From an uncultured Pseudomonadota bacterium (lineage in GTDB: Bacteria > Myxococcota_A > Polyangia > Fen-1088), in assembly GCA_963847705.1 (NCBI GenBank), contig CAWKBC010000030.1, forward strand, positions 320,001 through 384,000: DNA of 64,000 bases, read 5' to 3'. Positions 48,638 to 63,555 of this stretch are shown one piece after another. Position 1 is the stretch's first letter. Each line of letters begins with the position of its first letter. The translations under genes and the position numbers were made by a program. The notes beneath the pieces are model-generated. The model was not told the DNA's origin. It was given only the letters and a program-made list of their open reading frames with translations, and searched no databases.

Positions 48638-49348
48638 ATGACCCCTGAAGAGTCCCTCGATACGCTTTGGGACCACGCAATCGGCGGATGGGTCTGGGAC
48701 CTGTGCCGCGACGGCTTGGAGTCGGCGATCCTGAAGCCCCTTGCGCAGTGCCGCAGTGCCTCCCTGCATCTCGTGGACCGGATGCGGGGATTGGACAACT
48801 TCGCGGAGCGCAAGGTAGCAGCCACAATTGTCGGGTTCCTCGGTGCCCATGCGCCAGCGGACCTGCTCGACCAACTCTTCGAGGCGGAGGGCGCACGCGA
48901 CCGCGCGACGAAGAACGATGTCGAGCGGCTCGAGACCCAATCAGTCGTGGAGGACATCGTCTTCGCCGCTACTCGCTGGTGCCGAGATAGCGAACGTAAG
49001 GACGCCGGGCTCGGAGTGCTACGAAAGGTCGTAGAGCACACGCTCGCGGGCGAGTACTGGAATACGAGCAGCTACGCGATGATGGGGCTGGCGCGGCACG
49101 CGCCGGGAGACGCGCGGGACCTGCTGACGCGCTTCACCGTATATGCGAAGGGTTCTCCGCCGGCGCACCCGTCCAAGCCGACGATGGCTCAGGAGCGGGA
49201 ATTCGCCGACTCGATCGGAAACGGGAAGTGCGACGGTATTGAGAAGCACCTGTCACGTTGCGAAGCTGAAGCGGCTGCAGTGAAGTGGGACTCGCGCGGC
49301 CAGGGCGCATACGCAGCCTTCATGGCCGTGGCGCAGCAGGTGCCATAG
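48638..49348 (+). CDS. Hypothetical helical protein
   Basis: 236-aa ORF with protein-like composition; no family recognised. Confidence 0.65.
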   Translation: MTPEESLDTLWDHAIGGWVWDLCRDGLESAILKPLAQCRSASLHLVDRMRGLDNFAERKVAATIVGFLGAHAPADLLDQLFEAEGARDRATKNDVERLETQSVVEDIVFAATRWCRDSERKDAGLGVLRKVVEHTLAGEYWNTSSYAMMGLARHAPGDARDLLTRFTVYAKGSPPAHPSKPTMAQEREFADSIGNGKCDGIEKHLSRCEAEAAAVKWDSRGQGAYAAFMAVAQQVP

Positions 49349-49609: not shown

Positions 49610-49734
49610 GCGAAGCCATCTGAGGGTCCAAGTTACTCGGGCGTAGAGATGGTGGAGTCCAACGACCCGCGGAGACTCGGGGAGGCGGCCCGAATCTGGC
49701 GTCTCCCAAATTCCCGCGGCCTTTGTCGCGGCCC

Positions 49735-49863
49735 TTATCCGATTATCCGGCGAGGCCCAGCACGCCAAGGTAGCTAAATCGCGAGGGAATGGTCCTGCCA
49801 GGCCGCCGCGAGATTGCGGTGGTCAAGGATTATCCGACTGTGGAGAATACGAGTTATCCAGAC
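49735..49863 (+). other. Candidate attI-like site (first cassette junction)
   Basis: GTTATCCAGAC at 49853 is the exact partner of the cassette-1 R'' (GGATAAC, 51752). No attC hairpin lies upstream. TTATCC recurs at 49735, 49743 and 49830. Confidence 0.6.
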
Positions 49864-50054
49864 GGCAGTCCGACCCATGCTGTTAGCATCGCATCCGATG
49901 AAGGTCGTCTTAACGGTGGCGCTGGCCCTTCTGGAGTTAGGCGGATGTGGGAGCAACTCCGGGGTATGCCATGCCGGTTGTCTCTGCTATCGAACACCTC
50001 AGGACTGTCCAGCCGGTTGCTATCCATCGCTCACCCAATCGGTAGCGGAATCTG

Positions 50055-51125
50055 TCAACGCGTTTGAGACAGCGAGGGTGAGGAATCTAAGAGGCAAGCC
50101 TCGCTGAGCGAAGTCGGAATGCTGTCCTCGATGGTCACGGCGCTGGAGGTGAGGGGGTTGATGCTGACCTCGCTGGGAGGCAGCAGGACACGAGGAGCGC
50201 CGTGGGGGAAGCGCTCGGGATGGGCGGCGTGCGCAGCGTCCAGCGCCGCCTGGCGGACAATGCGTACCTGCTCGACGCGGCCGAAGAAAACGTCGGCCGG
50301 CGTGAACAGGGCGAGGTTGGAATGGTGGTGCTCGTCGTTGTGCCAGCCGAAGAACGGCGCGAGCCAGCCGCGGGCATGTAACTCGCCGGCGAAACGCCCC
50401 GGGTAGTCGGGTTGGTACTTCAACGTCTTGAACTGCGCCTCGCTGAAGGCGTTGTCGTCGGACACGTGCGGGCGGCTGAAGCTCCGCTGGACTCCGAGCG
50501 TCGCCAACAATTGCGCCAGTGTGTCGCTCTTCATCGCGGAGCCGCGATCCGCGTGGACGGTCAGGCCGGGCTCGACGCCGTGGCGGGCGATGGTCTCGGC
50601 GAATAGCTGCGCGGCCAGGTGCTTGCTCTCCTTCGGGGCCACCATCCAGCCGACGACGTATCGGCTGAACAGGTCGATGATGACGTACGCGTGCAGGAAC
50701 ACGCCCACGGCGGTCGAGGCCAGCTTCGTTATGTCCCAGGTCCACACCTGGTTCGGTGCCGTGGCCGTCAGCGAGGGCTTCGTGTACACGTGGGGCCGTC
50801 GCTGATTGCGACGCTCCTTCGTCTCGCCGCGCGCGGCGAGAACTCGGTAAATCGTGCGAATCGAGGCCAGGTAGATGCCGCGGCTGAGCAGCGTTGCATA
50901 GAGCTCCATCACCGACTGGTCGGCGAACTCCGCGCTGTGGACCGCAGCGAGAATCGCGGCGCGTTCGACGTCGCTCACGCGGCGTGGGCTCGGCGCCCGG
51001 GGTGACGGCCAATGCGGCGGTGCTGGCCGCGTGCCCCGGTACAGCATCGCGCGACTGACGCCCAACGCCTGGCACGCCGTTGTGATCGGGACGATCGGGT
51101 CGGCTAGATCTTCCACGAGGTCCAT
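50055..51125 (-). CDS. IS3-family transposase OrfB (DDE)
   Basis: Motifs PNQVWTWDIT, IDLFSR, HADRGS and DNAFSEAQFKTLK. Confidence 0.95.
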   Translation of the reverse strand: MDLVEDLADPIVPITTACQALGVSRAMLYRGTRPAPPHWPSPRAPSPRRVSDVERAAILAAVHSAEFADQSVMELYATLLSRGIYLASIRTIYRVLAARGETKERRNQRRPHVYTKPSLTATAPNQVWTWDITKLASTAVGVFLHAYVIIDLFSRYVVGWMVAPKESKHLAAQLFAETIARHGVEPGLTVHADRGSAMKSDTLAQLLATLGVQRSFSRPHVSDDNAFSEAQFKTLKYQPDYPGRFAGELHARGWLAPFFGWHNDEHHHSNLALFTPADVFFGRVEQVRIVRQAALDAAHAAHPERFPHGAPRVLLPPSEVSINPLTSSAVTIEDSIPTSLSEACLLDSSPSLSQTR

Positions 51126-51589
51126 CAGGTCTCGTCGTCGAGCACTGGCAGTGCGATGCCCAGAATCTCGTGCGCTTTTTTTTGGAGTGCGATGACGGCT
51201 TCAGCGATGTGCAGCTTGCGCTCGAGGACGGCGGTGCGCTTGAGCAACTGGGCGTTGAGGCGGTCCTTCGCGTCCAGCTTGGGCTTGCGACCCACCTTGC
51301 GCGGCGCGAGTCCTGCCGCGCCCTGCGCGCTGAGCTGCCCGCGCCATGACGACAGAGCGGAGCTGTAGAGGCCCTCCTCGCGCAGCATGGCCTCAAGCGC
51401 GCCGCGCTCCCCGCTGGCGATGCAGGCGTCCGCCTTCTTCACGATTCGTAATTTCTCGGCGGCGCTGAACGACCGCCTCGTGCGCTTCGGCGTCGTCTCT
51501 ACCGCAGCGCCACTGACCCCGAGCGCCTGCTGGCGTCGCTCGGCCTCGGGCATGGTTTCACGAACTGGGACTGGGGATGTCTTGAGCAA
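51125..51589 (-). CDS. IS3-family OrfA
   Basis: RRSFSAAEKLRI..REEGLYSS. An A8 slippery tract lies at 51176-51183 and there is a TGATG overlap with orfB. Confidence 0.9.
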   Translation of the reverse strand: MLKTSPVPVRETMPEAERRQQALGVSGAAVETTPKRTRRSFSAAEKLRIVKKADACIASGERGALEAMLREEGLYSSALSSWRGQLSAQGAAGLAPRKVGRKPKLDAKDRLNAQLLKRTAVLERKLHIAEAVIALQKKAHEILGIALPVLDDET

Positions 51590-51751
51590 GATCGCGGGTC
51601 CATTCTCCGCCCATCGGCACTGAAGTTTCCAGAGAAGGCTGTCTCACGCGACGTTGGCACAGGGGGTAGACGGTTCCGTGCCACAGTTCTTCTGCTCGAA
51701 CGGACCGGGGTTGGATGCCAGTTCCCGGTAGTAGAGGACATCGTGGGCGCT

Positions 51752-51905
51752 GGATAACCAGCCGTTGCAGCAGCCGAACGCCACACGCGCACGATCGAGC
51801 GCGGGCTCATGCCGCGACGCCGCAGGCTATGCCCGCGGCTCCTCGCGGCCGTGATACGCTTGAAGGCGACCCTGGCGTTCGCTGCTGAACGGCAGGTCGT
51901 TAGAC
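51752..51905 (+). repeat. attC1 (154 bp)
   Basis: GGATAAC..GTTAGAC; long class. Confidence 0.9.
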
Positions 51906-51918
51906 GGACAAGCGACGC

Positions 51919-52209
51919 ATGTGCCCTTCATGCCAAGAGCTTCAGGTCGAGGTCGCGATACGAACTCCCGGAGAACTGGCCAAGGCGATTCGTGTCGCTC
52001 AAGCGAACATCGTCGACGGAACGCTTCAGCCGATCGAGCCGGCAGGAGCGCAGCCGATCGCGAGCATCCAGCCTGATGGTCCTTGGGAGGACGTAATCTC
52101 CTACCTCTTTCGCTGCGCCAAGTGTGGAACGCAGTTCGAACTCTCGGCCGAGACCTACCATGGGAGCGGCGGCTCTTGGCGACGCCGGGACTCGGCGGGT
52201 GCCGTCTAA
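51919..52209 (+). CDS. Cassette 2: small Zn-ribbon-like protein
   Basis: CPSC..CAKC and YHGSGGSW; the stop codon lies inside R''. Confidence 0.8.
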   Translation: MCPSCQELQVEVAIRTPGELAKAIRVAQANIVDGTLQPIEPAGAQPIASIQPDGPWEDVISYLFRCAKCGTQFELSAETYHGSGGSWRRRDSAGAV

Positions 52210-52288
52210 CCCGCCGTTGCAGACGGACCGGCGCGTCGGTCGCTTCGCTCCCTCTCGCGCCGGCCGCTGAACGGCTATATCGTTAGCC
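52204..52288 (+). repeat. attC2 (85 bp)
   Basis: GTCTAAC..GTTAGCC. Confidence 0.9.
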
Positions 52289-52299
52289 GGACGAAGAAT

Positions 52300-52806
52300 A
52301 TGGGATATCGCTGTCGCTGTTGCGGTGTCTGGCACGAGGAGCGGCCAACGTGCTTCGGAGCAGACCTTCCAGCGGCTCTCTCTGAGCTCTCAGATCTCGA
52401 GTTCCGGAAGCGGGTCGAGAGCGGATCCGATCAGTGCATCCTCGATGGAAAGCATTTCTTCATCCTCGGGAACCTGGACCTCCCGATCCGAGGCTCTTCG
52501 GAGTTCATGAGATGGACCGTGTGGTCCACGCTGAGCGAAACCAACTTCGAACGATCGTCGGAGTTGTGGGACTCGCCCGGAAGAGAATCCGAGCCTCCCT
52601 ACTTTGGCTGGCTGAGCAACCAGATCCCGGGTTATCCCTCGTCGATCAACATCAAGGTCATGGTGCACACAGAGCCCGTCGGCATCCGGCCACGGCTTCG
52701 GGTCATCGAGGATGGACACCCGCTCTTCACCGATCAAGAAGGCGGCATTACGGAAGACCGTGCCGAAGAGTTGATTCATGCCTCCCTACACGGAGACGCC
52801 GGCTAA
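52300..52806 (+). CDS. Cassette 3: DUF2199-like protein
   Basis: CRCCGVWH, DQCILDGKHFFILG and YFGWLSN motifs. Confidence 0.8.
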   Translation: MGYRCRCCGVWHEERPTCFGADLPAALSELSDLEFRKRVESGSDQCILDGKHFFILGNLDLPIRGSSEFMRWTVWSTLSETNFERSSELWDSPGRESEPPYFGWLSNQIPGYPSSINIKVMVHTEPVGIRPRLRVIEDGHPLFTDQEGGITEDRAEELIHASLHGDAG

Positions 52807-52884
52807 CATGGTGTTGCAGCGGCCGATCATCCTTCCTCGCTTCGCTCGGGCGGATGCTCGCCGCTGAACACCAGGACGTTGGAC
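52801..52884 (+). repeat. attC3 (84 bp)
   Basis: GGCTAAC..GTTGGAC. Confidence 0.9.
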
Positions 52885-52893
52885 AGACGAGTG

Positions 52894-53229
52894 ATGAGCC
52901 CACCGGGTGACGCCCATTTTCGAGTGAGCGGGTTGCTCAAGCTTCAGAGCCGCCCCGGCGCATTTGTGTGCGGTGAGATCCTGGATGGTGAAGTGAAGCG
53001 GGGGATGGAGATCCTATGGCCGATTCACGGCAACGCGCTGACGATGCCCGTCGCAGTTCGCGACGTCGAGGTCATCGACTACGCACCGGGTGCGTCGGGA
53101 ATCGCACTGGGCGTTGGCTTCGACCAGAATGAGATTGAGAACGAGCAGCTTCTTCGAGACATTCTTGAAGTCGGGATGATCGTCACGATTCGGACGCCAT
53201 CGGTGTCGGGCTCTGCGGCCGCCGGGTAG
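52894..53229 (+). CDS. Cassette 4: hypothetical beta-rich protein
   Basis: The ORF fills the cassette. Confidence 0.75.
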   Translation: MSPPGDAHFRVSGLLKLQSRPGAFVCGEILDGEVKRGMEILWPIHGNALTMPVAVRDVEVIDYAPGASGIALGVGFDQNEIENEQLLRDILEVGMIVTIRTPSVSGSAAAG

Positions 53230-53231
53230 CT

Positions 53232-53384
53232 GTCCAACAAGCCGTTGCAGCGGATGAACGCCTGCGCGGCTCGCTCGAGCGCGGGCCGTGCCGCGACGCC
53301 GCGGGCTGCGCCCGCGGCTCCTCGCGGCCGTGGTACGCTCGGACGCGACCTTGGCGTTCACCGCTGAACGGCAGGTCGTTATCC
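53232..53384 (+). repeat. attC4 (153 bp)
   Basis: GTCCAAC..GTTATCC; long class. Confidence 0.9.
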
Positions 53385-53393
53385 CGACGAGCG

Positions 53394-53693
53394 ATGCCTA
53401 GGTTCCGCGTGATGGTAAAGGGTGCGCCAGTGTTCCTGCTCGACGTGGATTCGCAGGAAACGCACCGCTTCGGTTTCTACACGACGCGGCTCGTGAAGGC
53501 GGCTACCGTCGACGACGCTGGACGCGCGGTGACTCGACTGGTATTGGACGAGTTCGCGACCCGAGGGACGAAGAATCCTCCGGACCAACCCATCAGCGTG
53601 AGGGTCGAGGAGGTCACCAAGGTGTCCTGGTGGGAAGCGGTGCGAGGGGGCCCCGGACGAGGGTTCACCTTCTATCCTGACGACGTATCCTGA
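53394..53693 (+). CDS. Cassette 5: hypothetical protein
   Basis: The ORF fills the cassette and ends GFTFYPDD. Confidence 0.75.
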   Translation: MPRFRVMVKGAPVFLLDVDSQETHRFGFYTTRLVKAATVDDAGRAVTRLVLDEFATRGTKNPPDQPISVRVEEVTKVSWWEAVRGGPGRGFTFYPDDVS

Positions 53694-53697
53694 AGCG

Positions 53698-53781
53698 GGA
53701 TAACATGCCGTTGCAGCGGACGATCACCCTTCCTCGCTTCGCTCGGGCGGGTGTTCGCCGCTGAACGGCAAATCGTTAGCC
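53698..53781 (+). repeat. attC5 (84 bp)
   Basis: GGATAAC..GTTAGCC. Confidence 0.9.
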
Positions 53782-53797
53782 GGACGAGACGCGACTG

Positions 53798-54277
53798 ATG
53801 CCCCTCAAGTGGTTCGGAGTGAAGGTCTTGGTCCGCACGGACGCCGTGGGTAAGGCCCGCTCGCGCGATGCCCATCTCGACGTCGATGGCGCACTCGTCG
53901 AGGAACGCATCGTCGTAATCCGGTCCGCCACGGCCGAGCGCGCGGGGGAGAAGGCCAAGCGTATCGTCGCGAAGGAGACCCGACTTCGGTACACCAACGT
54001 CTACGGCCAGAAGATTCAGCTGCGTGTGCTGAAGGCGTGGCAATCGTATGAGCTTTTCGACCCGCCGAGTGAGGGTGCTGAGGTATTCTCCGACACTCAC
54101 CGAGTGCCCAAGACCATGTCAGAAAGTACGATCGCGGCGCGCTTCCTGTCGGCAAACATCACTCCGGCCGTGCGGCGCAGACGGGCCACGTTCATAGCCG
54201 CTAAGTTGACCGAGGCATTCAGGCCGCCGGCTAACAAGCCGTTGCAGCGGACGGGCCGGCGGCCGGCCCGCCGCTGA
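53798..54277 (+). CDS. Cassette 6: DUF4288-like protein
   Basis: KWFGVK, EERIVVIRS, YTNVYG and GAEVFS motifs; the ORF reads into attC6. Confidence 0.75.
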   Translation: MPLKWFGVKVLVRTDAVGKARSRDAHLDVDGALVEERIVVIRSATAERAGEKAKRIVAKETRLRYTNVYGQKIQLRVLKAWQSYELFDPPSEGAEVFSDTHRVPKTMSESTIAARFLSANITPAVRRRRATFIAAKLTEAFRPPANKPLQRTGRRPARR

Positions 54278-54294
54278 ACGGCAGATCGTTGGAC
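54229..54294 (+). repeat. attC6 (66 bp)
   Basis: GGCTAAC..GTTGGAC. Confidence 0.9.
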
Positions 54295-54309
54295 AGACGC
54301 GGGTTGGAT

Positions 54310-55272
54310 GTGACATCGGGCGCGGAAAAGAAATGGAAGCGCTTCGAGGACCTGGCAGCCCAGATCCAGCGGAGCCTCGCTCCAGAATCGCGCGTCGAAC
54401 AGAACGTGCGCATGAAGGGCCGGGCAAGCGGGGTGGACCGCCAGATCGATGTCGCTGTGTGGACACAGGCCGGGCAGTTCGAACTCTTGGTTGTGATCGA
54501 CTGCAAGGACTACCAAGCCAAGGTCGATGTGAAGGATGTGGAGGCCTTCATCGGGTTAGTCAAGGATGTGGGGGCGAACAAGGGCGCCCTCGTCTCGGCG
54601 CTCGGCTACACGCAAGCCGCGAAGAATGTCGCCGACCAAGCCGGACTCAACCTCTACACCTTGGTCGATGCGGAATCAGAGGACTGGCCATCGTTCGTCA
54701 CGATGCCGGTCTTGGTAGACGATCGAACGATAGAAGCGGTCAGCTACACGGTTTCGTCGACCCAGTGGGGACGGTCTGGTCTCGATATCCGTGACATACA
54801 GAACCTTTCAGTGTTCAGGCGCGACGGAACACGAATCGGTCCCGTCAGAGACTTGGTCTCGAGGATGTGGAACGAGGACAGGCTTCCAAGGGAAGCAGGT
54901 GAGCATCACGACATTACCTTGGGTGACGAACCAACCTTCTTCCGGAGTGGCACCGACGTCTGGCCTGTCGAGCTGAAGGCCAGCATCCGAGTCTCGAGGA
55001 CGCTGTACTTCGGTCATCTGTCGCTCGTCAAAGTTCGGGGCTTCCAGGACGACATCAACGGAGGCATCCACACCAGATCGATCACCACCGACTGGCTAGT
55101 TTGGGAGAAAGTGAAAGAGACGTGGCAGGTTGTTCCCTCTGAGGACTCCCTTGCCGTGAAGCCCGCCATGATTCAATTCCTTGCAACCTACTATCCGCTG
55201 GAGGGAGAGCCTGAAGACGAGGGCGCTGTCCAACAAGCCGTTGCAGCGGACGGGGCTTCGCCCTGCCGCTGA
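54310..55272 (+). CDS. Cassette 7: Mrr-like PD-(D/E)xK restriction endonuclease with extra C-terminal domain
   Basis: WKRFEDL, RQIDV, IDCKDY and GYTQAA motifs; the ORF reads into attC7. Confidence 0.85.
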   Translation: MTSGAEKKWKRFEDLAAQIQRSLAPESRVEQNVRMKGRASGVDRQIDVAVWTQAGQFELLVVIDCKDYQAKVDVKDVEAFIGLVKDVGANKGALVSALGYTQAAKNVADQAGLNLYTLVDAESEDWPSFVTMPVLVDDRTIEAVSYTVSSTQWGRSGLDIRDIQNLSVFRRDGTRIGPVRDLVSRMWNEDRLPREAGEHHDITLGDEPTFFRSGTDVWPVELKASIRVSRTLYFGHLSLVKVRGFQDDINGGIHTRSITTDWLVWEKVKETWQVVPSEDSLAVKPAMIQFLATYYPLEGEPEDEGAVQQAVAADGASPCR

Positions 55273-55289
55273 ACGGCAGGTCGTTATGC
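55228..55289 (+). repeat. attC7 (62 bp)
   Basis: GTCCAAC..GTTATGC. Confidence 0.9.
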
Positions 55290-55310
55290 AGATCGCGATG
55301 GTCATCGGGG

Positions 55311-55811
55311 ATGCGGGCTGAAGACATCACGAATGCGGCGCGACAGGCGATCGAGGCCGCGTTTCCAGCCTCGCCGCTGCCGACGGCGGAACAGATCCGC
55401 AATGACCACTGTCCGGAGTGCCGTGAGCTCGCTGCACGCTTCTCCGGTAGGCCGTGGCCGGAGCTCACCCTCGCCGATCTCTCAGGCAATCCGAGCCCTT
55501 CGCTGCTGACCACTGCAGCGTTCCGGTACTATCTGCCAGCGATGATGCTGCGGTCGATGGAGGGCCGCCGGGAGCTGGACTGCCTCCCGAGGTCTCTCGT
55601 CAGCGAGTTGTCTCCTGCCGGAGGCGAGCCGAGCGAGAATAGCCGCGACCGGCTGACGGGCTTCACCGGTAGCCAGGTGCTCGCGATCCTCGCGTTCCTG
55701 CGACACTTTGAGGCGAGCGAATCCGAGGAGGTGCTCGGCGACAAGAGCGGTCGGCGGGTCACCGCCCGCGCCATCAAATATTGGAGTGGCCTCGCGGGGG
55801 AGTCTGCATAA
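55311..55811 (+). CDS. Cassette 8: DUF6714-like hypothetical protein
   Basis: IEAAFP and AFRYYLPAMM motifs. Confidence 0.7.
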   Translation: MRAEDITNAARQAIEAAFPASPLPTAEQIRNDHCPECRELAARFSGRPWPELTLADLSGNPSPSLLTTAAFRYYLPAMMLRSMEGRRELDCLPRSLVSELSPAGGEPSENSRDRLTGFTGSQVLAILAFLRHFEASESEEVLGDKSGRRVTARAIKYWSGLAGESA

Positions 55812-55868
55812 CCGCGCGTTGCAGCGGACGGCGCTTGCGCGCCGCCGCTGAACGCGTGATCGTTAGAC
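55806..55868 (+). repeat. attC8 (63 bp)
   Basis: GCATAAC..GTTAGAC. Confidence 0.9.
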
Positions 55869-55882
55869 GCACGGAGCACGAC

Positions 55883-56380
55883 GTGGGCGAGAAGATGTAC
55901 ACCGCGAAGGAAGGGTTCAGGACGATCGACCTCCTTCACTTCGGCCTCGACCACATCAAGGCGGCGCGCCTGCTGTTTGAGGCAAGCTACGAAACCTTCG
56001 ACTCAGCGGGCCACCTTGCGCACTTGGGGATCGAGCTCTTGCTGAAGGCGATCCTGCTGGATTCGAACGGCGAGTTCCCCAACCAGCACAGTCTTCTTAA
56101 GCTGGTCGAGGCTATCCGTGCTCACAGGCCAGGATTCCTGACGGGCGGGGATCTGGAGAGGATTCTCAAGCACCTTGATCCATTCGTCGTGCTTCGGTAT
56201 CCGGATGCAAAAGGATCGAAGAGCGTCGGCGATGAGGATTGGGACCAGATCGAGCGCTTACGTGATGCGACCATCGCGGAGATGCCGCAAGGTCTTAGGG
56301 ACGAGATTCGAAGGATCGATCCCACCAAGAAGGGCGGGCGGACGCTCATGGAGTTGCCGAAGGTGGGGTCGTCTACTTGA
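55883..56380 (+). CDS. Cassette 9: HEPN-domain protein
   Basis: HLGIELLLKA, HSLLKL and LRYPD motifs. Confidence 0.8.
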   Translation: MGEKMYTAKEGFRTIDLLHFGLDHIKAARLLFEASYETFDSAGHLAHLGIELLLKAILLDSNGEFPNQHSLLKLVEAIRAHRPGFLTGGDLERILKHLDPFVVLRYPDAKGSKSVGDEDWDQIERLRDATIAEMPQGLRDEIRRIDPTKKGGRTLMELPKVGSST

Positions 56381-56390
56381 AGTCGGCGGC

Positions 56391-56474
56391 ATCTAACCAC
56401 GCGTTGCAGGCGGACGATCGCCTTCCTCGCTTCGCTCGGGCGGCTGCTCGCCGCTGAACGCGAGATCGTTAGCC
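56391..56474 (+). repeat. attC9 (84 bp)
   Basis: ATCTAAC..GTTAGCC. Confidence 0.9.
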
Positions 56475-56480
56475 AGACCA

Positions 56481-56936
56481 ATGCGAACGCCACATGAACT
56501 CGCAGATGCGGTCGCCTCGTTCGTGGACGCCAAGCGCAACGCACCATGCAGTCCTGACGAGTTAGCGTCGACCGAGCGGAGACTATGCATCACCTTGCCC
56601 GCGGATGCGCGCGCGTTCTACGAACAGATGAATGGAACGGCAGACATGACCGACGTCGATCATGGCCTCATCACGCTGTGGTCCCTCGACAAGTGGCAAC
56701 GGGTTGAAGATGAAGCGCCTCAGTACGCCCAGGGACATCTTGCGAACACCGTGGTCTTCGCCGATCATTCGTACTGGTGTTGGGCCTATGGAGCGCGATT
56801 CTCCGCCGAGACGCCCGATCGGATGGAAGTTGTCCTGGTGGCGAACGGTGCTCCTGTTCCGATCGCCGAAACATTCACCGACTTTGTCCAGATGGTGCTC
56901 TCTGGTGACCAGGCTCTATACGGGAAGGCTGGCTAA
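56481..56936 (+). CDS. Cassette 10: SMI1/KNR4 (SUKH) family protein
   Basis: ERRLCITLPADARAFYEQMNG, VFAD and IAETFTDF motifs. Confidence 0.85.
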   Translation: MRTPHELADAVASFVDAKRNAPCSPDELASTERRLCITLPADARAFYEQMNGTADMTDVDHGLITLWSLDKWQRVEDEAPQYAQGHLANTVVFADHSYWCWAYGARFSAETPDRMEVVLVANGAPVPIAETFTDFVQMVLSGDQALYGKAG

Positions 56937-56992
56937 CCCGGCGTTGAACCCGACGGGCCTTCGGCCCGCGGGTTAACGCCACGACGTTAGCC
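56931..56992 (+). repeat. attC10 (62 bp)
   Basis: GGCTAAC..GTTAGCC. Confidence 0.9.
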
Positions 56993-57012
56993 AGACAGAA
57001 GGAACTGTTCCG

Positions 57013-57456
57013 ATGCGTGCGTTCTGGACCGTTCTCGTTCTTGCCATAGGCCTTTCAGGTTCGTCGAGGGCTGACGAGAAGCCCTACGCGCAGTTCGGGA
57101 CCGATATCGCGCGGGTGGAGTCAGGGGGCGTGTGGAAGACTGGCACGCAGTGGGGGCGATACCGAGCCGTTGTACGGCGCGGCTGCTCACCAGAACACTG
57201 CTATGACGATCTCTTCGTCGAGTGGATCGAGGTGATAGAAGGTGGTGGCTCGAAGGTTGTGGCCACGACACACGTCTCGGAGATCCCGGGATTGACTCAC
57301 GTCTCGGACGTGCGATTCCTGTTTCCGAAGAAGGGCACGGAACTGGAGGTTCAGCATGAAGGCGGCGATGGCGCTGACAAGTGGACGTTGTGCTTCGATC
57401 TCGGTCTCCCGGGGAAGTACACGACCAAGAAGGGGAAGTGCGAACGTGCTGGCTAA
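57013..57456 (+). CDS. Cassette 11: secreted hypothetical protein
   Basis: Signal peptide; GCSPEHC motif. Confidence 0.75.
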   Translation: MRAFWTVLVLAIGLSGSSRADEKPYAQFGTDIARVESGGVWKTGTQWGRYRAVVRRGCSPEHCYDDLFVEWIEVIEGGGSKVVATTHVSEIPGLTHVSDVRFLFPKKGTELEVQHEGGDGADKWTLCFDLGLPGKYTTKKGKCERAG

Positions 57457-57534
57457 CAAGGCGTTGCAGCGGATGATCGCCCTTCCTCGCTGCGCTCGGG
57501 CGGGCGCTCACCGCTGAACGCCAGGTCGTTATCC
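57451..57534 (+). repeat. attC11 (84 bp)
   Basis: GGCTAAC..GTTATCC. Confidence 0.9.
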
Positions 57535-57544
57535 GGACGGACGC

Positions 57545-58090
57545 ATGCTCTTCGTCAGCACGAGACAATGTTTTCGGTATGGCGACCCTGGCTGGGACAG
57601 CTACGTCGCCTCGGTTGAGCTGCCGCATCTGCGCGAGGTCCGAACTATCGATGCGGGACTCAATAGATACGTCGATCAGTGCGGCTGCGTCTTCTGCGAT
57701 TCATCGGAAGTAGAGTCTGTGCTTGCGATGCTTCCGAACCCGACTGACGGTCGGGGGTATTATCTACTCGGCCAGTCGCTCGAGTCCGAAGGCGGTGGCG
57801 CTCCCGACGGTTTCGAGTTCCTGGGTTGCGATCTGAGCGACGAGACGATGACGTCATCGCTTCTGAACTGCGGTCCCTGGAAGGGTCGTCTCCGGCCACT
57901 CGTCAGCCGACTCAACTCGTACGGACTTCTCTCGATCGCCGATGCCCGCGAAGCCCAGAGACTCTTGCCACTCGAATGGGGAGCCGAGGAACCTCATGCA
58001 GCGGCAGATATCTGGGTACTCTACGGGCGAGGGGCGGGGACGCCGGATAACCCGGCGTTGAACCCGACGGGCCTTCGGCCCGCGGGTTAA
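57545..58090 (+). CDS. Cassette 12: hypothetical protein
   Basis: FLGCDL..SLLNCG..LNSYGLL; the ORF reads into attC12. Confidence 0.75.
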   Translation: MLFVSTRQCFRYGDPGWDSYVASVELPHLREVRTIDAGLNRYVDQCGCVFCDSSEVESVLAMLPNPTDGRGYYLLGQSLESEGGGAPDGFEFLGCDLSDETMTSSLLNCGPWKGRLRPLVSRLNSYGLLSIADAREAQRLLPLEWGAEEPHAAADIWVLYGRGAGTPDNPALNPTGLRPAG

Positions 58091-58106
58091 CGCCATAGCG
58101 TTAGCC
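58045..58106 (+). repeat. attC12 (62 bp)
   Basis: GGATAAC..GTTAGCC; near-identical to attC10. Confidence 0.9.
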
Positions 58107-58116
58107 AGACAAGGGA

Positions 58117-58371
58117 ATGCGGATGCGAGTGGACGAGGCGGAGCAAGTATTCGCGATCGTGCGCGTCGACAAGTTCCAGGTTGCCGACGCGGCGGCGATC
58201 GATGACGAGACGTGGCCGGTTGTGATCACGGTGAAGGGCATCCTTCCTTCCAAGGAAGCTGCCATCGCCGAGACTGCTCGCCTGAACGCATTGAACGCGG
58301 AGAAGGGCTGCCTCTACTTCTGGCAAATGACGAGGTCACTGGCCGATCGGGCCGATGTAGACGCTGGCTAA
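58117..58371 (+). CDS. Cassette 13: small hypothetical protein
   Basis: RLNALNAEKGCLYFWQ motif; the ORF fills the cassette. Confidence 0.75.
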   Translation: MRMRVDEAEQVFAIVRVDKFQVADAAAIDDETWPVVITVKGILPSKEAAIAETARLNALNAEKGCLYFWQMTRSLADRADVDAG

Positions 58372-58519
58372 CAAGCCGTTGCAGCAGACGAACGCCACAC
58401 CTTTTCGCGCGAAGGCGGGCTGATGCCGCGACGCCGCGGGCTACGCCCGCGGCTCCTCGCAGCCGTGGTACGCTCCAAGACGACCCTGGCGTTCGCTACT
58501 GAACGGCAGGTCGTTAGCC
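58366..58519 (+). repeat. attC13 (154 bp)
   Basis: GGCTAAC..GTTAGCC; long class. Confidence 0.9.
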
Positions 58520-58528
58520 GTACTTCCT

Positions 58529-58753
58529 TCAGCGACGCGCGACGAAGTCGCGGACGTCCATTCCGATGTCTCGCGCGATCACCCGTAACAGTGTCGGCGA
58601 GATGTCCCTGCCGGGATGGAATGGAACCGTGGTCGCACGGCCGTCCGCATGACGGTACTGCCGGTGGGAGCCGCGTTGTCGAACTTCGAGGAACCCGAGG
58701 CGTTCCAGAATCCCGGCGACCTCACGGGGTTTGAGGACCGGAACGTCGCCCAT
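58529..58753 (-). CDS. hicA: Cassette 14: HicA toxin
   Basis: LERLGFLEVRQRGSH..TTVPFH. Confidence 0.92.
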   Translation of the reverse strand: MGDVPVLKPREVAGILERLGFLEVRQRGSHRQYRHADGRATTVPFHPGRDISPTLLRVIARDIGMDVRDFVARR

Positions 58754-58754
58754 T

Positions 58755-58964
58755 CTATGCGACCTTGACGGTCTGCGTCCCGATAAACTCCCCTTCTAGC
58801 TTGGGCTCGCCGTCCTCGAGAAGCATCGCGACGACCTCTTCGAGGTTCTTCCGTAACTCGTCGATGCTAGCGCCTTGCGAGTGCGCACCCGGCCATCCCG
58901 GGACATAGCCCACGAATAGACCCGTGCCGGGATCCCGCTCGATGACGGCCGTGAAGTTCCGCAT
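58755..58964 (-). CDS. hicB: Cassette 14: short HicB antitoxin
   Basis: FTAVIERD..VPGWPGAHSQG..EL; no DNA-binding domain. Confidence 0.9.
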   Translation of the reverse strand: MRNFTAVIERDPGTGLFVGYVPGWPGAHSQGASIDELRKNLEEVVAMLLEDGEPKLEGEFIGTQTVKVA

Positions 58965-58972
58965 GAGGATCA

Positions 58973-59001
58973 AGGGTAGCGCGCGTGCAGACGGCTAACA
59001 A
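58973..59001 (-). promoter_or_regulatory. Putative hicBA promoter overlapping the attC14 R'' box
   Basis: Minus strand reads TTGTTA-17 bp-TACCCT, 8 nt before the hicB ATG. Confidence 0.5.
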
Positions 59002-59146
59002 GCCGTTGCAGCGGATGAACGCCTGCGCGGCTCGCTCGAGCGCGGGCCGTGCCGCGACGCCGCGGGCTGGCGCCCGAGGCTCCTCGCGGCCGTGGTACGC
59101 TCGAACGCGAACCTGGCGTTCACCGCTGAACGGCAGGTCGTTAGCC
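58993..59146 (+). repeat. attC14 (154 bp)
   Basis: GGCTAAC..GTTAGCC; long class. Confidence 0.9.
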
Positions 59147-59264
59147 GGACGTGAGGCTCTGAAGTGATGATGAAACGCTGCTGTCATGTCGGAAGTGGAT
59201 TGGCCCTGCTTCCCTGATTGGTGCGACAGATGGCCGCTTATCGTGTTCCTCATGTTGGGCGATC

Positions 59265-59477
59265 ATGAAGACTGACGGTGCTCGAGCATTTCGGGCGGGT
59301 ATTGCCACAGGCGTCGCGATTCTTGCAGTCGTCTACTTCGCGCTGGGAAAGAAGGGCTGGCAGGTGTTCCGCATAGCGATGCTGCCACCTGCTCTCGGGA
59401 TGTTCTTCGCGAAGTTCTTCCCTTCGCTGACGCTCGAATCTGATTCCGGCGAAGCCAGTAGCGAGACTGCCGGCTAA
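59265..59477 (+). CDS. Cassette 15: small two-TM protein
   Basis: Two hydrophobic segments; the stop codon lies inside R''. Confidence 0.65.
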   Translation: MKTDGARAFRAGIATGVAILAVVYFALGKKGWQVFRIAMLPPALGMFFAKFFPSLTLESDSGEASSETAG

Positions 59478-59625
59478 CAAGCCGTTGCAGCGGATGAACG
59501 CCTCTCGCTCTGCTCGAACGCATGCTCGTGCCGCGACGCCACGGGCTGCGCCCGCGGCTCCTCGCGGCCGTGGTACGCTTGGGCGCGACCGTCGGCGTTC
59601 ACCGCTGAACGGCAGATCGTTAGCC
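59472..59625 (+). repeat. attC15 (154 bp)
   Basis: GGCTAAC..GTTAGCC; long class. Confidence 0.9.
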
Positions 59626-59629
59626 ACAC

Positions 59630-60025
59630 GTGTCGATGCTCAGTCTCAAGTCATCGAACTCGGACGCGGCGGTCACCTTTTCCGAGGTGGATGGAGACCA
59701 CTTTCGGGTGTCGGTGGTCGCACCCGATCATTCCGTTTCCCGAGTCGTATACGCATACACCGACGCGTTCGGCGTCGCTGATCTGTTCACGCAGGCCGCT
59801 CAGGAGTGGAAGGGCTGGGACGGCGCCAAGGTCTGGCAGTCCATCGAGGGCGAGTTGCAACTGGGGCTCAGCCACGATCGTCGTGGTCACGTGACGCTTC
59901 GCGTTCGGATCTGCTCCGACCGGGGCGGCGCGGACTCATGGCAGCACGAGGCTGACATTGGGTTGGACGCCGGCCAATTGGAAACCCTCGCACTCGGAGC
60001 CAAGACCCTGTGGGCCGGTGGCTAA
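59630..60025 (+). CDS. Cassette 16: DUF6228-like protein
   Basis: WKGWDGAKVWQSIEGEL..DRRGHV. Confidence 0.78.
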   Translation: MSMLSLKSSNSDAAVTFSEVDGDHFRVSVVAPDHSVSRVVYAYTDAFGVADLFTQAAQEWKGWDGAKVWQSIEGELQLGLSHDRRGHVTLRVRICSDRGGADSWQHEADIGLDAGQLETLALGAKTLWAGG

Positions 60026-60103
60026 CAAGCCGTTGCAGCGGACGGGCGCGTCGGTCGCTTCGCTCCCTCGTGCGCCCGCCGCTGAACGGCAGTATCGTTC
60101 GGC
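60020..60103 (+). repeat. attC16 (84 bp)
   Basis: GGCTAAC..GTTCGGC. Confidence 0.9.
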
Positions 60104-60112
60104 AGACAGTGG

Positions 60113-60367
60113 ATGAACGGACCGGAGCCACAGTCCGATGACGAGATGTGGGTCGCTCTCCGGGCGACGAACCCCGTCCGTTCTCTGATCGCGCTGGTCG
60201 AGGAATGGAAGGCGAACGGCTGCACGAAGGAATTCGCCGAGCGCCGCCTGACTGGGTTCCTCGACGAAGTGATGGCCCATGGCGACGCCGATCAAGATGA
60301 TCCTGTGCGCGACGTCCTGGACCTCGTGGCCGGGTATTGCAGTCCTCACGCGAAGCTCTTTCCGTAA
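60113..60367 (+). CDS. Cassette 17: small helical hypothetical protein
   Basis: C-terminus DVLDLVAGYCSP. Confidence 0.75.
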   Translation: MNGPEPQSDDEMWVALRATNPVRSLIALVEEWKANGCTKEFAERRLTGFLDEVMAHGDADQDDPVRDVLDLVAGYCSPHAKLFP

Positions 60368-60372
60368 TCGCT

Positions 60373-60526
60373 GCCGAACCCGCCGTTGCAGCGGATGAAC
60401 GCCTGCGCGGCTCGCTCGATCGTAGGCCGAGCCGCGACGCCGCGGGCTGGCGCCCGCGGCTCCTCGCGGCCGTGGTACGATCGCAGGTCCGTTCGGCGCT
60501 CACCGCTGAACGGCAAAACGTTGGGC
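60373..60526 (+). repeat. attC17 (154 bp)
   Basis: GCCGAAC..GTTGGGC; long class. Confidence 0.9.
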
Positions 60527-60542
60527 AGACGGGCCAGGCTCC

Positions 60543-60977
60543 TTGAGTTCCGATGACTACGACGATCCCGCGCTAGAAGCCCGTTGGCTCGCTCAGCAGC
60601 GCGGCAACGTGGAGCGGTACCTTGAGACCGAAAGCGTTCGCCACGGCGGCGTGGACGCCGATTGCAGCTGGTACGTTGCTCCATACGTCTCGGTCTGGAT
60701 CGTGCGGTCGCTGGCGAGGTTGGGCTCAGTCGGGTGGTGGGCCATTAGCGGAGATCTTCCGACCGACTACCTAAGCGGCGGTGATGCAACCGACGCTCGG
60801 AGTGCGCTGCGCGCGTTTGCTCGACGCTGGCGAGAGGTCGCAGAGTACATGCGCCGCGGTGAGGACCACCCCGACATGAGCGTGGGGAATCCCGAGAACA
60901 AGACAGAACTGGGCGAACTTCTCCGGCGACGGGCCGAGATCATTCAGGAGTTCGTGAGTGACGACAGTCTGTGGTAG
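60543..60977 (+). CDS. Cassette 18: DUF4826-like protein
   Basis: APYVSVW and WWAISGDLPTDY motifs. Confidence 0.82.
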   Translation: MSSDDYDDPALEARWLAQQRGNVERYLETESVRHGGVDADCSWYVAPYVSVWIVRSLARLGSVGWWAISGDLPTDYLSGGDATDARSALRAFARRWREVAEYMRRGEDHPDMSVGNPENKTELGELLRRRAEIIQEFVSDDSLW

Positions 60978-60983
60978 CGCGCT

Positions 60984-61044
60984 GCCCAACCCGGAATTGC
61001 AGCGGGCGGGCTGCGCCCGCCGCTGAATTCCAGTATCGTTAGAC
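60984..61044 (+). repeat. attC18 (61 bp)
   Basis: GCCCAAC..GTTAGAC. Confidence 0.9.
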
Positions 61045-61053
61045 GGATTCCAG

Positions 61054-61311
61054 GTGACGAAGCTGCGAAAGGTGTCATTGGCCGTCGGAGCGGTGGGTTC
61101 AATCCCCGTCGTCTTCTTGGTGGCGTGGGGTTACTTCGACGCAATGGTCCGGTCGGAGTACGCGTCGGGGGCTCGCACGTCTACAGACGGCGACTCAATC
61201 ATCATCCCCGTTGTCGGCGTGACCGCGGCCTGGATCGTTCTCGTGGTCGTCGCGCTCGGGATCTTCGGAATCGTCGTTCTCCTTCGGAAGCGTCCGCGAA
61301 GCACCGTCTAA
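61054..61311 (+). CDS. Cassette 19: small two-TM protein
   Basis: Two TM segments flanking RTSTDGDSI. Confidence 0.72.
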   Translation: MTKLRKVSLAVGAVGSIPVVFLVAWGYFDAMVRSEYASGARTSTDGDSIIIPVVGVTAAWIVLVVVALGIFGIVVLLRKRPRSTV

Positions 61312-61459
61312 CAAGCCGTTGCAGCAGCCGAACGCCACGTCCGTCCGCTCGCGGGTGGGCTCACGCCGCGACGCCGCGGGCTGCGCCCGCGGCTCCTCGC
61401 GGTCGTGGTACGCTCCGAGGGGACCCTGGCGTTCGCTGCTGAACGGCAGGTCGTTGGAC
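61306..61459 (+). repeat. attC19 (154 bp)
   Basis: GTCTAAC..GTTGGAC; long class. Confidence 0.9.
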
Positions 61460-61467
61460 GGACGAGC

Positions 61468-61701
61468 ATGCACGATCGTGATCAGCCGCGTCAGGACATG
61501 GCAGGATTGAAATCGGAGCTTGACCGCCTCGCAGCCGAAGAACAGCGAATCCGTGGTGAGATCGCCGAAGCCCGCCGAATCCTGACGATCGAGCGTGCGG
61601 CGACCCGTCGGCAGCCGTTGAAGTTTGGCGCACTCGGTTGGGCCGCCGTCTCGTTTCTCGTCTCTTTGTTCGCAGGCGCTTTCATTAGATGCGGAGGCTA
61701 G
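61468..61701 (+). CDS. Cassette 20 ORF a: coiled-coil plus C-terminal TM
   Basis: LKSELDRLAAEEQRI heptads followed by a hydrophobic tail. Confidence 0.65.
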   Translation: MHDRDQPRQDMAGLKSELDRLAAEEQRIRGEIAEARRILTIERAATRRQPLKFGALGWAAVSFLVSLFAGAFIRCGG

Positions 61702-61705
61702 GGCT

Positions 61706-61930
61706 GTGTCACCGTTTCGAGACACGGCGGCGAACGCTCTCGAGGTCGCGAAGCGACTCGAAACTCGAATCGTCGAACGCAACGCACTCATCCAGGATTT
61801 GGCTCGCGACCTCGAACATCTGCATCGGCAGATCGCGAGCCATCGCCAGGCTTATCCCATCTGGCCGCGCGCGATCGGGCTGCTAGCCGGTGTTGCGATC
61901 GGCACTGCGGTCCACGTGCTGGTACGATGA
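61706..61930 (+). CDS. Cassette 20 ORF b: coiled-coil plus C-terminal TM
   Basis: GGAGG RBS and GTG start; heptads followed by AIGLLAGVAIGTAV. Confidence 0.6.
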   Translation: MSPFRDTAANALEVAKRLETRIVERNALIQDLARDLEHLHRQIASHRQAYPIWPRAIGLLAGVAIGTAVHVLVR

Positions 61931-61938
61931 CCGACGCC

Positions 61939-61985
61939 GTCCAACCCGGCGTTGAACCCGCCGGGTTAACGCCACGACGTTCGAC
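61939..61985 (+). repeat. attC20 (47 bp, minimal)
   Basis: GTCCAAC..GTTCGAC; resembles attC10 without the terminal hairpin. Confidence 0.85.
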
Positions 61986-61993
61986 GGACGACA

Positions 61994-62500
61994 ATGTGCC
62001 TACGTAGCGCCACTCTCGCTTTTGCTCTTCTCCTTTCTCCCATGGCGTGGACAGCGGACAAAATCGCCGAGTTCGGTCTCGTTCTCGAAGCCCCGGGCAA
62101 GTGGTCGAAGGTGCCGAAGGATGACCCGGACTTCACGGTCTATCGCGCGCAGCAAGCACGCGAACAGATCACGATCCGTGTGATGCAATCGAGAAAACGA
62201 ATGGATCCCAAGGCCCGGCAGGAGACAGTCGGTGCCTTGGTTGAACACCGACAGGAGGCTGAACGGCGCGGAGCCGACGGCACTGTGTCCTTCAAGCCAG
62301 TCAAGAGTCTTGAGCGTGGTGGCCTGACGATCGTGACCTACTGCGGAAACGATGGGGGCCGTCCGTTCGCAACTATGGTTCTCGCTTCGGAAGATCGAGC
62401 CTGGACCCTCTTCTACGAAACGCTCGAAAGCCCTGCCGAATCGTTTTGCCCCCGCGCAGAGAAGATGTTCACGACGGTGCGGCAGGCCACGAAGCACTAG
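61994..62500 (+). CDS. Cassette 21: secreted hypothetical protein
   Basis: Signal peptide; the ORF fills the cassette. Confidence 0.75.
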   Translation: MCLRSATLAFALLLSPMAWTADKIAEFGLVLEAPGKWSKVPKDDPDFTVYRAQQAREQITIRVMQSRKRMDPKARQETVGALVEHRQEAERRGADGTVSFKPVKSLERGGLTIVTYCGNDGGRPFATMVLASEDRAWTLFYETLESPAESFCPRAEKMFTTVRQATKH

Positions 62501-62512
62501 TCTCCGTTGGCC

Positions 62513-62597
62513 GTCGAACCCGCCGTTGCAGTCGGACGGGCGCGTCGGTCGCTGCGCTCCCTCTCGCGCCCGCCGCTGAACGGCAGTATCGTTCGGC
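62513..62597 (+). repeat. attC21 (85 bp)
   Basis: GTCGAAC..GTTCGGC. Confidence 0.9.
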
Positions 62598-62621
62598 AGA
62601 CAGGGTGACGCCCTTCGAACT

Positions 62622-62861
62622 GTGGGAGCGACGTTGAAATATCTGTCCGGCGAGGCGGTCGTGGCCGGCGACATCGTCCGGGTCACGTTTCGATCGAGTC
62701 CCGTTGAAGCCTACGTGGTTGCCGTTCTGGTCCCAGGAAGCCCCGAGGCGCTGGAGTGGAACGCGCCTGAAGGTGGCATCATGGTCAACTCAGAAGCGAC
62801 TGGGCGGGTCCTCTGGAGCAGAGCTGACGAAGACATGGCGTTCATTTGCCGCAACCCGTGA
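62622..62861 (+). CDS. Cassette 22: small beta-rich hypothetical protein
   Basis: YLSGEAVVAGDIV..GGIMV. Confidence 0.7.
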   Translation: MGATLKYLSGEAVVAGDIVRVTFRSSPVEAYVVAVLVPGSPEALEWNAPEGGIMVNSEATGRVLWSRADEDMAFICRNP

Positions 62862-62866
62862 TCGCT

Positions 62867-63021
62867 GCCGAACCAGCCGTTGCAGCGAACGAACGCCTGC
62901 GCTGGCCGCTCGACGGTGGGCTGATGCCGCGACGGCGCGGGCTGCGCCCGCACCTCCTCGCGGCCGTGTTACGCTCGTGGTGTCCCTTCGGCGTTCGCCG
63001 CTGAACGGCAAAACGTTGGGC
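62867..63021 (+). repeat. attC22 (155 bp)
   Basis: GCCGAAC..GTTGGGC; long class. Confidence 0.9.
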
Positions 63022-63031
63022 AGACGAGCGG

Positions 63032-63424
63032 ATGTGGTCCTTCTTCGAGCGCATGTTTGGCAGGCGACCTACAGGCGAAGGATGGGATCTCCGCGTCGAC
63101 CGCACGGGGCGGGGTAGCCCGATTGTCTACCTTGAGGGGACGAACCAGATAGAATTCGACTTCGAGCTGGGCGACGCATGTACGATTTACTGCCCGTCTT
63201 CGGCCGACTGGGATCAGAGGTTCCCATGGGCCGCCGGTCGTCGTCACGAAATCATGGAACGCGTCGGCGCTGAGTTCGTCCGGCGTGAGTTTCGTGGCTA
63301 CACATTCGAGATCGGCGGGGGCGTGCTTCGCCCGCGACTGAACCCGGAAAGGGAACTCTTGGGGTTCGACACGGCCCAGTCGGAGGACATCATCGTCATC
63401 CGCAAGAGGGCCAAGAGGGACTAG
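63032..63424 (+). CDS. Cassette 23: hypothetical protein (its own attC is missing)
   Basis: WDQRFPWAAGRRHEIMERV. The expected GCCCAAC R'' was not found downstream. Confidence 0.75.
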   Translation: MWSFFERMFGRRPTGEGWDLRVDRTGRGSPIVYLEGTNQIEFDFELGDACTIYCPSSADWDQRFPWAAGRRHEIMERVGAEFVRREFRGYTFEIGGGVLRPRLNPERELLGFDTAQSEDIIVIRKRAKRD

Positions 63425-63555
63425 ATCGCAGGTTCGCGCGGCGACGAACTTTCGCGAGCTTGATCATGTTGGGAAGGTGGATGCGCGCGAGTATCACGAT
63501 GAATTCGAAGTCATCGACTCCGATCTTCGCGTCGGCTGAATGCGCCTCCAGCCAC

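Follow-up and report, generated by a model that had tools for sequence, protein, structure and literature searches.

Analysis of a 64,000-nucleotide (nt) window (contig CAWKBC010000030.1 of assembly GCA_963847705.1, an uncultured bacterium of the Polyangia) revealed an array of integron-type gene cassettes whose attC recombination sites have an R stem that continues beyond the 7-bp R box and skips one fixed base. The array comprises 23 cassette starts and 22 attC sites in tandem (49853–63424), behind an attI region; all 23 starts and 22 R″ boxes were located, and the cassette set was fixed by hand. Counting forward from the GTT that opens each cassette (R′ side, + positions) and backward from its own R″ box (− positions), +8/−1 and +9/−2 were paired in 22/22 cassettes each (shuffled ends: 10.1, p ≤ 0.0002, and 16.6, p ≤ 0.0004, respectively), and +11/−3, with +10 looped out, in 21/22 (shuffled ends: 18.3; p = 0.004). 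A direct +10/−3 pair was present in 1/22 (shuffled ends: 1.0), and +10 was A at all 23 starts. The stem reached one pair further than originally predicted, with +12/−4 paired in 14/22 cassettes by four pair types (shuffled ends: 9.0; p = 0.01), and +13/−5 was paired no more often than by chance (4/22; shuffled ends: 4.7). The original prediction, made from the letters of the window, had claimed complementarity of +8 and +9 with the cassette's own R″ flank in all 22 cassettes, compensatory changes in cassettes 5, 9, 14, 16, and 19, an A at +10 of every start, and a +11/−3 pair past the looped A everywhere except in cassette 8; all of these counts were reproduced. Cassette 8 is exceptional because its +10 A pairs directly (AGA/TCT). 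Since +11/−3 is nearly invariant in the window (C/G in 20/21), real covariation at this pair comes from relatives.

We sampled 22 stretches from 12 genomes of the same family, in which a detector returned 187 candidate cassettes; 17 were removed by a filter on R-box positions 4–7 (independent of the tested positions), 16 as duplicates, and 13 as longer than 1,500 nt or near-duplicates, leaving 141. On the 22 window cassettes, the first version of the detector recovered 15 and the revised one 20, one of these fused. Among the 141 cassettes, 119 were bulged, i.e., skipped +10, 6 had an unbroken stem, and a direct +10/−3 pair was found in 7, with +8, +9, and +11 paired in 89–98%. Mutual information was high at +8/−1, +9/−2, +11/−3 (0.376), and +12/−4 (0.308) but at shuffle level at +10/−3 (0.047) and +11/−4 (0.046), so the covariation, for which the original prediction had proposed a check, is confined to the skipped register. 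Kin cassettes are not independent, and the p values therefore overstate significance; when each homology cluster was reduced to a single cassette (leaving 151 of 163, those of the window among them), +11/−3 was paired in 135/151 (shuffle maximum: 122) and +12/−4 in 82/151 (shuffle maximum: 65). One homologous pair of cassettes (66% identity) displayed double changes at both +11/−3 and +12/−4. The predicted invariance of the A did not extend to the family, where +10 was A in 122, C in 8, G in 7, and T in 4 cassettes; the looped base was G, T, or C in 12 of the 119 bulged cassettes, with the register kept, and differed (C versus T) between homologous cassettes of 84% identity.

Further analysis of attC anatomy revealed that the bulge mirrors a known feature of the opposite arm, which the original prediction had overlooked. 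In the window, an R″ box ending in AAC and an R′ box starting with GTT, with cassette-specific complementarity from +4, were found in 22/22 sites, with one mismatch among 88 variable R-box pairs (cassette 9). The first unpaired base of the L arm (L″ position 4) was present in 22/22 attC sites and the second, six pairs further on, in 21/22; an unpaired central spacer separates the R and L boxes, with arms of 5 nt and 8–9 nt. The first of these bases is G on top and C on the bottom, not the usual bottom-strand G, in 22/22 window and 111/112 family sites, and gammaproteobacterial attC sites have C on top in 17/20. As putative attC sites, they would be recombined by IntI as a folded bottom strand. 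Written in the same way, L″ reads GTT[G]-six pairs-[A]C and the cassette start reads GTT-six pairs-[A]C. The bulge thus follows nine pairs from GTT in a G[A]C context, the register and context of the L-arm extrahelical T (T24/T12″), and because both bases lie in T-N6-AAC on the bottom strand running 5′ to 3′ into the spacer, the two-fold axis of the folded site maps one position onto the other. The unpaired L-arm base could be placed after nine pairs in 21/22 window attC sites (A in 17) and in 97/112 canonical L arms of the family. By the usual description of an extrahelical base, the skipped base has the T-N6 spacing and no partner on the other arm; however, its place is the R′ arm, beyond the R box, and not the R″-L″ arm.

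The likeness extends to base preference. In the family, R′ positions +7, +9, +10, and +11 (C100, G92, A87, and C82) resemble L″ without its first bulge (C97, G100, A75, and C84), and the left arms share G-C-N-G, although the two logos disagree at +4 to +6; the phylum's other classes have the same left arm without the R-side A. Within a cassette, the variable L and R positions showed no link (8 positions, p ≥ 0.098), and copying of the L arm into the R arm, cassette by cassette, was therefore rejected. A constraint common to both arms, for example a single protein that binds the two half-sites, is favored over copying. The HH pair of the T pocket, mapped to 2A3V, was invariant in 6/6 aligned integrases of relatives.

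Next, we folded the bottom strand of the 22 window sites with DNA parameters and no protein, both as the junction of the excised circle and as it stands in the array. In the predicted circle folds, the probability of +9/−2 was 0.95 and that of an unpaired +10 was 0.80, and in the array folds, +9/−2 reached 0.21; +11/−3 exceeded 0.5 in 11/22 circle folds versus 2/22 array folds. The extended R structure is therefore circle-specific in these models and marginal without protein. The pairing counts and circle folds agree with the predicted longer R stem carrying an unpaired bottom-strand T in the circle.

The extension proved general, while the bulge is concentrated in this class and scattered elsewhere. 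With the same filters for every group, the numbers of bulged, unbroken, and total cassettes were 5/0/7 in other families of the class, 1/20/23 in other classes of the phylum, 6/23/31 in Gemmatirosa kalamazoonensis, 3/13/44 in the class of Nitrococcus together with named beta and gamma loci, 2/18/33 in an AT-rich gammaproteobacterial order, 6/10/28 in other named phyla (with a bulge in 2/2 at a Vicinamibacteria locus), 12/8/38 at metagenome loci, and 0/7/16 among class 1 cassettes (from 20 rows, after merging of 3 duplicates and removal of 1 doubtful call). Gammaproteobacteria together had a bulge in 5/77 (locus L179 is in both gamma sets); the AT-rich order is a stand-in, as the comparison was made without named Vibrio, Xanthomonas, Pseudomonas, or Treponema chromosomal arrays. 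Extended self-pairing was present in every large group sampled, including unbroken extensions in Gammaproteobacteria, Gemmatirosa, and class 1 cassettes. The suggestion of a lineage-specific feature therefore stands as a bias (119/141 in the family versus 1/23 in other classes and 0/16 in class 1) and not as exclusivity. Of the outcome that would have spoken against novelty, extension and bulge equally common everywhere, only the first half was found. On plasmid 1 of G. kalamazoonensis (L059), −3 is G in 31/31 distinct cassettes, paired directly with +10 in 25 and with +11 past a looped A in 6. A tree built from 35 integrases requires 6 changes of the bulge label (shuffled mean: 10.0; 1/500 shuffles as low), and one branch (100/99) held 7 bulged arrays and 1 mixed array. 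The starred branches force at least 2 changes; the tree neither shows nor excludes few origins.

We tentatively favor, at a little under an even chance, an R-side extrahelical T that the integrase would hold in the circular cassette and that would aid integration at attI. The two ends of a cassette are complementary over nine pairs, pass over +10, and in most cases add one or two further pairs; once the circle is excised, the base passed over would become a T flipped out of the bottom strand, presumably gripped by the corresponding pocket of the integrase subunit bound to the R half-site, and this contact would help the circle insert at attI. A positive effect is suggested because own-end pairing is selectable only in the circle and an uninserted circle is lost; such pairing arises at genesis or through selection in the circle, for which insertion is the reaction that retains the cassette. 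The first L-arm bulge, here a bottom-strand C, would be the main remaining mark telling L from R. Integrase contact is the most economical reading of a register that is fixed while the base itself is free to vary, of its coincidence with the T24 position, and of pocket histidines that are conserved. That attC in this lineage might be two-fold symmetric for the T pocket, with both subunits gripping a flipped T and the R-side one doing so in the circle only, is possible but more doubtful.

Several results weigh against an R-side T that aids integration. When VchIntIA binds T24 in cis, its catalytic site becomes disorganised (according to a section of PMC2727003); an attacking subunit that held a T in this way would thus be expected to cut less well. 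Bulged and unbroken types occur side by side in Gemmatirosa (6 and 23 of 31, respectively), and 22 of the 141 family cassettes are not bulged, so a single integrase can handle either type. No integrase residue was found to track the bulge: the position of P232 is V, P, A, or R in bulged arrays and is also variable in unbroken ones, and the integrase tree requires six changes of the label. A TIGR02249 profile search of the window's genome (84.7% complete) found no integron integrase above the cut-off. Among the 25 cluster-set cassettes with a base other than C at +11, a pair with −3 is present in 12 and missing in 13. Finally, the pair beyond the bulge holds in 11/22 protein-free folds (mean 0.50), and +10 may simply be a frayed stem end.

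The best-surviving rival, which we consider unlikely, is a scar of cassette genesis: a cassette-building process would make both ends from one template or hairpin and leave an extra base to which recombination is blind. Covariation restricted to the cassette's own ends could also be yielded by genesis, the coexistence of both types within the Gemmatirosa array fits a scar, and the 3′-end consensus G-C-N-G is alike in bulged and unbroken lineages, with the A gained at the 5′ end only. However, a scar would make the exact match to the L-arm T register a coincidence, and the looped base varies while its register is kept. The lack of a link between variable L and R positions also speaks against it, as does pairing at +8, +9, and +11 that stays high over 141 cassettes and 12 genomes. 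Between the two options left by the original prediction, a recombinase determinant or a scar, the sequence evidence leans toward the determinant.

Two further readings appear quite improbable. In one, RGAC is a sequence motif, either read double-stranded when the cassette lies first behind attI or, as GGA/AGA, part of a ribosome-binding site, and GCY pairs with it as best it can. In support, +10 is A in 134/151 cassettes, the first ATG lies within 12 nt in 64/151, and a GTTAGAC-RGAC copy occurs upstream of attI in four relatives. Yet the A is about as common when the ATG is distant (58/64, 36/38, and 40/49) and is also found in the reversed HicAB cassette, and a motif leaves unexplained both the skipped-register covariation and the missing partner T (direct pair in 7/141). 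A ribosome-binding site as the sole cause was rejected. In the other reading, the R-side T would act as a brake: like T24 on the L side, it would enter the pocket and disarm its subunit, here the attacking one, thereby slowing cassette turnover in a storage array. The register is indeed that of the disarming T24, but the structure is best formed in the circle (11/22) and rare in the array (2/22), so a brake would hinder insertion, not loss, and cassettes without a bulge should then fill arrays, yet 119/141 are bulged. A constraint from protein coding or base composition is very improbable. The original prediction linked the consensus to "many" proteins ending in Ala-Gly; such ends, at a TAA in R″, are found in 5/22 window proteins (open reading frames [ORFs] ending at 52806, 56936, 57456, 58371, and 59477). 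Of 90 family cassettes in which the longest ORF terminates before reaching −3, 76 are of the bulged type (ORF prediction being rough in GC-rich sequence), and equally GC-rich genomes from other classes of the phylum have 20/23 unbroken stems.

Were the R-side T confirmed as a contact, it would be a fourth unpaired attC feature and a circle-specific signal favoring insertion of the lineage's own cassettes, and pocket binding would not by itself be the off switch proposed from the Vibrio structure. None of the three known unpaired features lies outside the R box, and a fourth, formed mainly in the circle, would offer a means of tuning insertion apart from excision. The bulge could thus be a lineage filter on cassette exchange, and it offers a direct test of the model in which extrahelical-T binding switches a subunit off. 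Even if neutral, it marks cassette origin and constrains how cassettes are made.

Apart from these stems, the array is, as judged from its sequence, an ordinary integron-type array minus its integrase. Cassette 1 starts at attI because the 150 bases before it align with the sequence that separates intI from the first cassette in three same-genus genomes (86% mean column identity). In relatives, the array lies downstream of intI on the same strand, none was found upstream of intI in 19/20 stretches examined, and an integrase above the TIGR02249 cut-off was found in 21/61 genomes. The genome has 69% GC and 19 MYXO-CTERM matches, both consistent with a member of the Myxococcota. The complete-integron arrangement of intI beside attI is absent here, with attI present and no IntI match in the assembly; the attI region (49700–49853) is retained despite the loss of intI. 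Upstream, an unrelated 236-aa ORF (48638–49348) had no Pfam family and only weak atlas matches. A cassette-start-like motif, GTTAGAC-RGACC, lies just past the intI stop, ~150 nt upstream of attI, in L148, L020, L021, and L023, and TTATCC repeats occupy a similar place in the window (49737–49752) and other relatives; these motifs are possible accessory integrase sites. Directly after the attI GTT, four relatives carry an identical non-cassette end (L153 [G010], L018 [G036], L021 [G004], and L024 [G014]), beyond which, in G010, come a tyrosine recombinase gene and an IS91-family transposase (Y2_Tnp, Zn_Tnp_IS91); attI seems to have been occupied by an IS91-type element more than once.

The cassettes themselves are listed in Table 1. 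The ends of cassette 1 remain fully complementary despite the inserted insertion sequence (IS). The reversed HicAB toxin-antitoxin, Mrr-type nuclease, and HEPN (55781–56380) cassettes are typical storage-array cargo with a possible role in defence. Directly past the last cassette lies a short ORF of the phage integrase family (63460–63963) that is not IntI. Outside the window, a second attI-like site (G000:C32:213510-214800) is followed by one intact cassette and then one with a decayed attC; the intact cassette ends in GG[A]G / CCC, a G:C change at +11/−3 with the bulge kept. In a relative's array (L148-L149, G020:C9), a 364-nt cassette is present at least 7 times.

Table 1. Positions of attI, cassettes, and the inserted IS in the window, with cassette ends (R′ and its flank ... 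flank and R″; looped base in brackets)
Feature	Position	Strand	Cassette ends	R″	+10	Remarks
attI region	49700..49853	+				aligned with the intI-to-first-cassette stretch of three relatives; no intI here
Cassette 1	49853..51899	+	GTTATCC AG[A]CG ... CGCT GGATAAC	51752	49862	interrupted by IS
IS inside cassette 1	50055..51589	-				two ORFs; rve integrase core domain
Cassette 2	51899..52282	+	GTTAGAC GG[A]CA ... TGCC GTCTAAC	52204	51908	
Cassette 3	52282..52878	+	GTTAGCC GG[A]CG ... CGCC GGCTAAC	52801	52291	DUF2199
Cassette 4	52878..53378	+	GTTGGAC AG[A]CG ... AGCT GTCCAAC	53232	52887	
Cassette 5	53378..53775	+	GTTATCC CG[A]CG ... AGCG GGATAAC	53698	53387	C/G change at +8
Cassette 6	53775..54288	+	GTTAGCC GG[A]CG ... 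CGCC GGCTAAC	54229	53784	DUF4288
Cassette 7	54288..55283	+	GTTGGAC AG[A]CG ... CGCT GTCCAAC	55228	54297	Mrr_cat; nuclease ORF 54289-55272
Cassette 8	55283..55862	+	GTTATGC AGAT ... TCT GCATAAC	55806		DUF6714; exception, +10 A directly paired
Cassette 9	55862..56468	+	GTTAGAC GC[A]CG ... CGGC ATCTAAC	56391	55871	HEPN; one R-box mismatch
Cassette 10	56468..56986	+	GTTAGCC AG[A]CC ... GGCT GGCTAAC	56931	56477	SMI1/KNR4
Cassette 11	56986..57528	+	GTTAGCC AG[A]CA ... TGCT GGCTAAC	57451	56995	
Cassette 12	57528..58100	+	GTTATCC GG[A]CG ... CGCC GGATAAC	58045	57537	
Cassette 13	58100..58513	+	GTTAGCC AG[A]CA ... CGCT GGCTAAC	58366	58109	
Cassette 14	58513..59140	+	GTTAGCC GT[A]CT ... AGAC GGCTAAC	58993	58522	HicAB genes, minus strand, 58529-58973
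Cassette 15	59140..59619	+	GTTAGCC GG[A]CG ... TGCC GGCTAAC	59472	59149	
Cassette 16	59619..60097	+	GTTAGCC AC[A]CG ... CGGT GGCTAAC	60020	59628	DUF6228
Cassette 17	60097..60520	+	GTTCGGC AG[A]CA ... CGCT GCCGAAC	60373	60106	
Cassette 18	60520..61038	+	GTTGGGC AG[A]CG ... CGCT GCCCAAC	60984	60529	DUF4826
Cassette 19	61038..61453	+	GTTAGAC GG[A]TT ... CACC GTCTAAC	61306	61047	T/A change at +11/-3
Cassette 20	61453..61979	+	GTTGGAC GG[A]CG ... CGCC GTCCAAC	61939	61462	short attC without second L-arm bulge
Cassette 21	61979..62591	+	GTTCGAC GG[A]CG ... GGCC GTCGAAC	62513	61988	
Cassette 22	62591..63015	+	GTTCGGC AG[A]CA ... CGCT GCCGAAC	62867	62600	
Cassette 23 (start and ORF)	63015..63424	+	GTTGGGC AG[A]CG		63024	no attC found behind it

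Clusters of attC sites without an integrase are known as CALIN. The window array is like a CALIN in its 22 tandem attC sites and in an assembly with no IntI found, and unlike one in that the attI region is kept and the intI of relatives lies upstream, on the same strand as the cassettes.

At the level of the site, the closest comparison is with attC sites having extended R-box pairing. According to a section of Bouvier 2009 (PMC2727003, citing Rowe-Magnus 2003 and Sundstrom 1991), the ends of most cassettes contain 9–11 consecutive complementary nt, so the extension is, contrary to the original prediction, part of the published attC model. As far as that section goes, the window sites share with those sites the R″ AAC and R′ GTT, crossover at G|TT, own-end pairing over more than 7 nt, an L box with two or three unpaired bases, and an unpaired central spacer. 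There, however, pairing is consecutive and the extrahelical bases, defined on the R″-L″ arm, all belong to the L stem, whereas the R stem of the window sites is interrupted at one set position by an R′-arm base. The R-side bulge is unmentioned in the parts of PMC2727003, PMC3053210, and PMC5027507 covered here, in passages of PMC4792948, PMC8352920, PMC2811028, PMC7439510, PMC11641012, and PMC9892861, and in the titles and abstract openings of the literature searched. Recognition of attC is ascribed to three unpaired features in the pages of PMC5027507 covered; those of PMC3053210 describe T12″ as held by P232, H240, and H241 of the non-attacking subunit, with T-N6-C sites recognised, and T24 is given in PMC2727003, in the part covered, as not essential despite its effect in cis. 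With T24/T23 (T12″ in the VchIntIA-VCR structure, PDB 2A3V), as portrayed in those parts of the three papers, the window base shares its identity as a bottom-strand T, its distance of six pairs plus AAC from the spacer, and its top-strand G[A]C context. Unlike T24/T23, it belongs to the R half-site, that of the attacking subunit, lacks a G16-type partner, would be formed chiefly in the circle, is followed by only one or two pairs, and occurs in some lineages only. The extended R stem is thus already known, and the new part appears to be the bulge, which is lineage-biased and mirrors the extrahelical T of the L arm.

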